Shown piece after piece: positions 31,218 through 34,580 of a stretch of DNA of 64,000 nucleotides. This stretch comes from Eledone cirrhosa (Eukaryota): contig OZ024756.1 of the NCBI GenBank assembly GCA_964016885.1, forward strand, positions 21,452,001-21,516,000, given 5' to 3'. Under the pieces are notes generated by a model, which was not told the origin of the DNA, did no database searches, and saw only the letters and a list, made by a program, of their open reading frames with translations. The position numbers were made by a program, and so were the translations under genes. Position 1 is the stretch's first letter. Each line of letters opens with the position of its first letter.

Positions 31218-32035
31218 ATTTGGTTCTGGCTCCTCTATACACTCTGATTTTATCTCTCTGATTGTAGCCAGAGAACTGCATACGGTGGATGAAGTGTTGT
31301 ATGTCTCTCTCTAGTTCTTCGGGGTTGCACATGCGGGACACGTTTCTCAGTATGTCGATTTTGGTATGGTCCGAAACAGCTGAGTTCCGGTGGATCAGAT
31401 ATTTGGAAGTCATGGGTTTGGCATAATGGTAATGGAGGATTTGTAATTTTGTTATTAATGGTATCTAACCAGAGCTCTGTGTCTAGTACAGGTAATCGAT
31501 GGTTGCGGTGTTTACTTGGGTAGTCTATAGTAACTCTCATACTCTGGTGGATGGAGTTAGCTATTTGCTGGATGCTTTCCATTGTGTTTTTCTCTAATTC
31601 CTGACTGTTCTCTAGTGGGGGTGTTTTAACTACGATGTTTAAATCATCAACGTAGCGGGAGTACATTATCAGGGTTAAGGGGTCTTCTAATTGTTCTTTA
31701 AGTTTAAGTTTACTGTCCCAGCATACCATGAATAAGTTAGCTATGTCGCCTGCAATGCTAACACCAATGGCTGCTCCTTCCTCTTGGGAATATGTTTTTC
31801 CATTAAATTTGAACATATGTTCCTTAAGGGTTAATTTTATGCTGGCCCCCACCGCATGTGCAATCATTTTCTTCAGTTCATCGTGGTTTTCAGGTGTCCG
31901 GATGGCTCTGGTCCACCCCTTCCATCTATCTGTCTGGGTTTTCTTGGCCATTGAGGTAATGGTAGGTGGTCTGCCTCTTGCTGGTCTTGTAGGGCACAGG
32001 TTGCTAAGGTCATATGTGTCTAGGTAATTATTACT
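31218..32035 (-). mobile_element. Penelope-like element reverse transcriptase fragment (Naiad-like), frameshifted and truncated at both ends
   Basis: CPTRPARGRPPTIT...HMFKFNGKTYSQEEGAAIG..IAGDIANLFM...YSRYVDD...DYPSKH..RLPVLD; after a frameshift near 31440, HYAKPMTSKYLIH.NSA..RMQFSGY (thumb). No GIY-YIG domain in the window; the clade call is from remembered motifs. Confidence 0.88.
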
Positions 32036-32059
32036 AAAGGTAATAATTACCTAGACATA

Positions 32060-34580
<2,521 letters not shown>

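Follow-up and report, generated by a model that had tools for sequence, protein, structure and literature searches.

The reverse transcriptase (RT) sequence at 31219–32043 (minus strand) of the window, the 64,000-nucleotide stretch of Eledone cirrhosa DNA that was analysed as a whole, represents an internal remnant of a Penelope-like element (PLE), dead and without function, and its family is almost certainly a PLE with a C-terminal nuclease and not Naiad. At its 5' break, a self-primed fold-back probably happened at insertion. The locus is an ordinary dead PLE fragment, with a junction that is of known type and well resolved.

The fragment comprises the second half of the fingers insert, motifs RT4–RT7 and the thumb, without the nuclease. 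It aligns with residues 373–656 of P0003, a hypothetical protein of Octopus vulgaris, with 67% and 62% identity in its two frames (tblastn). Specifically, the RT is split over two frames of the minus strand at 31219–32050, the first of which carries QEEGAAIG, RYVDD and LPVLD and the second KPM and the thumb. When P0003 is compared with the window by tblastn, the frame switches at about 31448–31452, and the frameshift itself is placed at 31445..31446 (minus strand), where one extra base is present that is absent from the sister contigs in all four public runs. Additionally, contigs of runs X5 and X7 and loose ends of X1 reveal a 24-bp in-frame deletion at 31346..31347 (minus strand) with a 3-nt direct repeat at its bounds, which corresponds to an 8-aa gap against P0003 after 31346. 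The motifs Q.EGAAIG, RYVDD, LPVLD and KPM with one frameshift, listed in the initial annotation, are thus confirmed, and the 24-bp deletion is additional to them. Elsewhere in the window, tblastn with nine relatives detects no other piece of the element, no nuclease and no 3' end.

P0003 is the nearest protein, with 67% identity over the first frame, and the remaining 16 protein matches show 43–55% identity to the fragment; further protein searches yielded no family member closer than P0003. Pfam gives a weak RVT_1 match only, below the cutoff, a PDB sequence search gives one match (E 0.032), and the ESM Atlas returns unnamed RT clusters only, while the viral and prokaryote genome collections contain no relatives, either by protein or by a 21-nt DNA pattern. 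In a FastTree phylogeny of 36 sequences and 301 columns, from which P0024, P0038 and P0078 were left out because they do not match the core pattern, the fragment is sister to P0003 (0.998), and the 31-sequence group including the fragment is split from five distant PLEs with support 1.0, the outgroups being unlabelled and deep support weak (0.42–0.62). The AlphaFold model of the relative P0005 (pLDDT 93.7) matches telomerase RTs best, in all of the top 14 rows (best Z 15.5, rmsd 3.5, 267 aligned). Taken together, the protein relatives, the tree and the structural match to telomerase RTs support the earlier identification of the locus as a PLE relic.

The more specific label, Naiad-like, is not supported. 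Naiads are defined, in the part of PMC8557442 drawn on here, by an N-terminal nuclease, a DKA motif and the absence of a canonical hammerhead. Of the 168 proteins examined, 48 relatives combine an RT catalytic motif with a YIG-like one, and the GIY-YIG nuclease lies downstream of the RT in 47 of these 48; the exception, P0104, is a tandem read-through that opens with the tail of a preceding copy. In P0003, the nuclease linker is likewise downstream of the RT. The nuclease sits in the same ORF as the RT in the relatives and is lost from the window copy. The DK motif, which falls outside the fragment itself, reads DKS in 46 and DKA in one of the relatives that match the pattern. The TA target and the RT3–RT4 insert are Naiad traits, and Naiads occur in octopods, the cephalopod ones being described as old remnants (PMC8557442, same part), but the C-terminal nuclease, the DKS motif and the 3' hammerheads of the relatives contradict a Naiad, as do the RYVDD and GGAIG/GAAIG motifs and an RT3–RT4 spacing of 128–153 aa as against about 86 aa. 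The chance that the fragment is a Naiad is therefore practically negligible.

Signs of a tandem, pseudo-LTR (pLTR) or inverted organisation come from relatives and not from the fragment's own family: terminal direct repeats (L003 and L004), inverted hammerhead-bearing arms (L009) and the tandem read-through of P0104. In L009, a decayed relative lies between inverted hammerhead-bearing arms (943–1079 and 2933–3058), the classic inverted-pLTR layout. L004 (3–4901) holds a relative with an open frame of 1632 codons, in which a long tandem repeat of 21-bp units precedes the RT.

Of 113 aligned members, 65 cover the two motifs, and in all of these the RT3–RT4 spacing is 128–153 aa, whereas a hand count from Fig. 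S1 of PMC8557442 gives 62–65 aa for Penelope, Neptune and C. remanei, 86 for Naiad-Amil and 120 for human TERT. At L010 and L011, two distant loci, the spacing is 63. The insert is about 70 aa long, with conserved E, P, G, P, T, R and W positions, and is modelled at a pLDDT of at least 93. A Cx4-5CxxC linker before the nuclease is conserved as well; in most relatives that match the pattern, 7–9 aa separate it from the following Cys. In the cited portion of PMC8557442, a fingers insert is treated as absent from canonical C-terminal-nuclease PLEs.

Comparison with the named clades, as far as the cited portions of the literature describe them, gives a mixed picture. Nematis shares the C-terminal GIY-YIG nuclease and the short Cx-CxxC linker, as in Nematis_C4/Cr/Pp (PMC8557442 Figs S2, S7), and its nuclease tail is similar as judged by eye. 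However, the spacing is 65 aa in the C. remanei element, so that the insert is unlike Nematis, and the family differs further by its DKS motif and by GxxIG at RT4, which is GxxMG in Nematis. Neptune likewise has a C-terminal nuclease with a Cys linker, hammerheads and a microsatellite bias that is attributed to the linker (PMC8557442), but its linker spacer is about 25 aa instead of 7–9, and it has no fingers insert (62-aa spacing in DreriNep1). Naiad/Chlamys elements share the RT3–RT4 insert, (TA)n targets and 5' truncation, and are set apart, beyond the Naiad features named above, by an insert of about 20 aa; a CxC motif upstream of the RT is a further trait described for them. Penelope/Poseidon elements have no Cys linker before the nuclease, unlike the conserved linker found here, and the traits of Hydra (DKT motif, CxCx5C linker, no insertion-in-fingers domain, IFD) are matched in none of their parts. 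The telomerase IFD, like the insert, lies between RT3(A) and RT4(B), whose spacing in human TERT is 120 aa, and TERTs are the best structural matches of the predicted model; the likeness shown is one of position, length and whole-model fold, not of sequence. The insert may be an independent gain relative to the telomerase IFD.

In the literature searched, we found no description of a Nematis-type nuclease combined with a fingers insert of about 70 aa. The insert-bearing lineage is apparently unnamed, though its families could already have been catalogued as part of Nematis or with a general Penelope label. A large C-terminal-nuclease lineage with an insert of telomerase length would bear on PLE classification and on the origin of the telomerase IFD.

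The abundance of the family was assessed by aligning contigs of four public runs (X1, X4, X5 and X7) to 31218–32062 at 80% likeness. In X1, 3164 contigs match, of which 1827 are at least 95% alike; by class, 725 are at least 99% alike, 1102 fall at 95–99%, 865 at 90–95% and 472 lower. Summed contig depth does not equal copy number and was not used as such. At the sequence level, these matches indicate that the fragment belongs to an abundant family with many close copies. At 14 of the 40 positions listed, out of 93, the window copy is unlike at least 95% of the X1 depth. Its private substitutions at 31305–31934, counted among the same 40 of 93 positions, include 10 transversions out of 14, five of them G<->C. 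Internal skips of 59–372 nt account for 14 of the 15 X1/X5 joints listed (15 of 49).

At the 5' break, a perfect hairpin with 18-bp arms and the loop TAAAG spans 32017–32057 and extends to 32013–32061 with one G.T pair. When the 845-nt stretch is simulated 300 times under a Markov model, no perfect arm exceeds 12, as against 18 observed; the fold z-score is −7.4, and none of 200 shuffles is equally stable. Such hairpins are not rare within the window. One X7 contig follows the window up to 32043 and then departs as coding sequence, and its loose end past 32043, translated by hand, stays in register (TSELGLLLK vs TEELGLLLR in P0003). A diverged X4 contig likewise stays coding through the 5' break region. 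Because the X7 and X4 contigs stay coding, 32040–32043 is native and paired with 32031–32034, whereas 32044–32057 (plus strand) is an added inverted copy, 14 nt long, of 32017–32030 and not native to the element. The exact break point is placed by one close contig (X7), one diverged contig and one 67%-identical protein. The 18-bp snap-back proposed in the initial annotation therefore stands as a perfect hairpin and as a snap-back, but not as an addition of 18 nt, since 4 nt are native and 14 are added, with the break at 32043. Two simpler readings were rejected: a far arm wholly added (18 nt), as 4 nt of it are native, and a hairpin native to the element, as X7 and X4 go on as coding sequence.

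The putative self-primer is a native 4-bp stem with a 5-nt loop at 32031..32043 (plus strand), seen in the X7 contig and in the minimum-energy fold. As the element lies on the minus strand, its first cDNA strand is the plus strand, and therefore the folded end is the cDNA 3' end; the orientation of the hairpin is head-to-head, which places its formation on the cDNA strand. Of 785 possible fragment ends, 17 (2.2%), this one among them, offer 4 bp or more of terminal pairing. With −0.9 kcal/mol the stem is weak: its fold is equalled in 63 of 200 shuffles, and it is unpaired in the centroid.

Snap-back is a mechanism already in print, reported for R2 and inferred for PLEs. In the cited part of PMC11371274, R2 snap-back 5' junctions are published in which the cDNA 3' end self-primes before target joining, and the cited part of PMC3846280 describes rotifer PLEs with 18- and 38-bp 5' palindromes that are read as self-priming on an antisense template. 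The present hairpin resembles these R2 snap-backs and head-to-head PLE palindromes in that a cDNA or antisense 3' end self-primes and then joins the target. Unlike them, it belongs to a natural genomic copy with an internal truncation point, only 14 nt are added, and the priming stem is identifiable. Comparison with a sister copy tells the primer apart from what it primed in a 5' palindrome of a PLE, so that cases fitting the self-priming model of PLE inverted ends can be counted over thousands of natural copies.

Both ends of the copy lie in microsatellite. On the 3' side of the element, a TA/TATG microsatellite, which reads (TACA)n on the element strand, extends over 30715–31219 with 55 TATG vs 4 CATA units; on the 5' side, a 2.5-kb (TA)n array with interspersed G covers 32058–34577 with 174 TATG vs 9 CATA units. 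The two arrays share TATG polarity, as expected of one interrupted array. In line with the earlier description, the hairpin does lead into a 2.5-kb TA array (about 32057–34577), and the 3' end does stop in (TACA)n. The hairpin-to-array joint is read from the window assembly alone, as contigs of the four runs give no cover at 32059–32062. No target-site duplication is readable in the arrays. The start of the right array beside the hairpin (32065–32105) contains four C-bearing units of inverted polarity, in whose spacing no mirror symmetry is seen; C units cluster also at 34397–34427. A second giant TA array (3.4 kb, 49794–53247) has the same G-only skew, with no element evident at its ends. At the 3' junction (31216..31219), array and element overlap by 2 nt (31218–31219), since the contigs of X5 record 17 and X7 record 25 match down to 31218; a Tyr as the following native codon would bring the overlap to 3–4 nt. 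After K, P0004 and the loose end of X4 have Y, and P0003 has F. An overlap of 2–4 nt fits internal priming and later deletion alike.

We propose the following account of the locus, whose chance of being right as a whole falls a little short of even. A family copy would have entered the TA-rich array by target-primed reverse transcription, as PLE biology suggests, and cDNA synthesis would have halted early, at 32043. The cDNA 3' end would then have folded on the native 4-bp stem, primed 14 nt on itself and joined the TA target; this timing is presumptive, as is the polymerase, which may be the element RT or a host repair polymerase, both of which fit the sequence. The 3' half, with nuclease and hammerhead, was most likely lost later by a microhomology-mediated deletion into the array, and the copy would then have decayed. 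We lean slightly towards deletion because the copy has its 24-bp deletion between 3-nt repeats and because 14 of the 15 joints listed are internal skips. For insertion as an internal fragment, as advanced in the initial annotation, a later 3' deletion is an alternative that fits at least as well. Under that internal-fragment route, which we regard as possible but doubtful, the piece would have arrived in its present form: the end of a nicked TATG array would have primed reverse transcription inside the element RNA with 2–4 nt of pairing, followed by the same snap-back. The overlap at the 3' junction (2 nt shown, 3–4 nt inferred) speaks for it, as do the absence of nuclease and 3'-end traces from the rest of the window and the internal starts of a Poseidon PLE on its own RNA in vitro (PMC11167929, part cited). 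However, those in vitro starts, in the same part of that report, occur at defined stem-loop sites near the ORF start, without target homology and not mid-thumb, and deletions are common among the family copies. Because anole Poseidon initiates at fixed stem-loops without target homology, it lends no direct support to priming here.

The hairpin could also have formed after insertion, through a break in or near the TA array that a host polymerase repaired by fold-back, in a longer copy trimmed at both ends. Polymerase-theta-type repair leaves a 4-nt microhomology with a short templated inversion, a product that the 5' break resembles, and the copy is flanked by long TA arrays and bears a further deletion at a microhomology. 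This course is nevertheless improbable: seven fold-back insertions in three small families, each with a copy-specific centre, point to a step tied to insertion, and 5' palindromes recur in PLEs (PMC3846280, part cited). An amplification or assembly artefact at the long TA run, to which the hairpin-to-array junction would owe its existence, is less probable still, and very much so. Fold-back chimeras are a known library artefact, and the junction adjoins 2.5 kb of low-complexity array, but the break coincides with a native stem, and the arms of the other fold-backs are 90–97% alike, so that this class of structure is old genomic DNA.

Rfam gives no matches in the window, whereas a hammerhead motif scan requiring both stems finds nine, as against 0–2 in 10 shuffles. 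Among the nine close metagenome loci, three (L003, L006 and L008) carry, downstream of the ORF, a canonical hammerhead core complete with its two stems, a further such core lies in an inverted arm of L009, and L001, L004 and L005 have variants by eye; L002 is without a hammerhead, and the sequence of L007 ends at the stop codon. L001 and L006 run into (TA)n. Because the relatives carry 3' hammerheads and some run into (TA)n, the lineage is the right kind of hammerhead partner, and it is plausible as the partner of the window's hammerhead elements, more so than Naiad, which is without canonical hammerheads. The 3' ends of distant relatives show no clear DNA match to the window hammerhead elements, a comparison that is uninformative at about 45% protein identity. 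A PLE–hammerhead partnership has already been proposed (bioRxiv 10.64898/2026.07.22.740005, part cited). According to the cited part of PMC13282606, O. vulgaris has 31 recently active PLE families and PLEs are numerous in octopus, and other partner candidates therefore exist. A wider reading, which we consider rather unlikely as a whole, would join these points: an unnamed deep PLE lineage that combines a C-terminal nuclease of Nematis type, a hammerhead at the 3' end and, where telomerase has its IFD, a conserved and well-folded insert of about 70 aa would have been recently abundant in octopods, would routinely form snap-back cDNA ends and would drive the many fold-back hammerhead elements inserted in TA.

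Head-to-head fold-backs with different centres are found at 7 of 10 loci of three small families (blastn), mostly beside TA runs. The first family, which carries hammerheads and has arms some 165 bp long, lies in TA runs at 8627–8962, 10809–11151 and 28485–28650, as two fold-backs with different centres and one single arm, and looks like a non-autonomous PLE derivative. The second family (13054–13168, 28225–28340, 29864–29992 and 7902–7977) has three fold-backs with arms of 53–64 bp and loops of 9, 6 and 1 nt, and the motif scan detects no hammerhead core in it. The third (11680–11823, 57229–57365 and 9206–9268) includes two fold-backs centred on a CTGATGA...GAAA core whose stem I is not detectable. 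Single hammerhead-like motifs of other families are present at 4714, 12303, 15592 and 58984 (plus strand) and at 25769 (minus strand), those at 58984 and 25769 being of a common long stem II type. A related repeat, presumably akin to an octopus SINE, forms tandem units of 146 bp and 135 bp at 41396–41813 and 44717–45122, with a piece also at about 12130–12290. A 152-bp tandem repeat of two 76-bp halves covers 1–401, and a 27-bp minisatellite with 26.6 copies at 98% spans 17819–18537.
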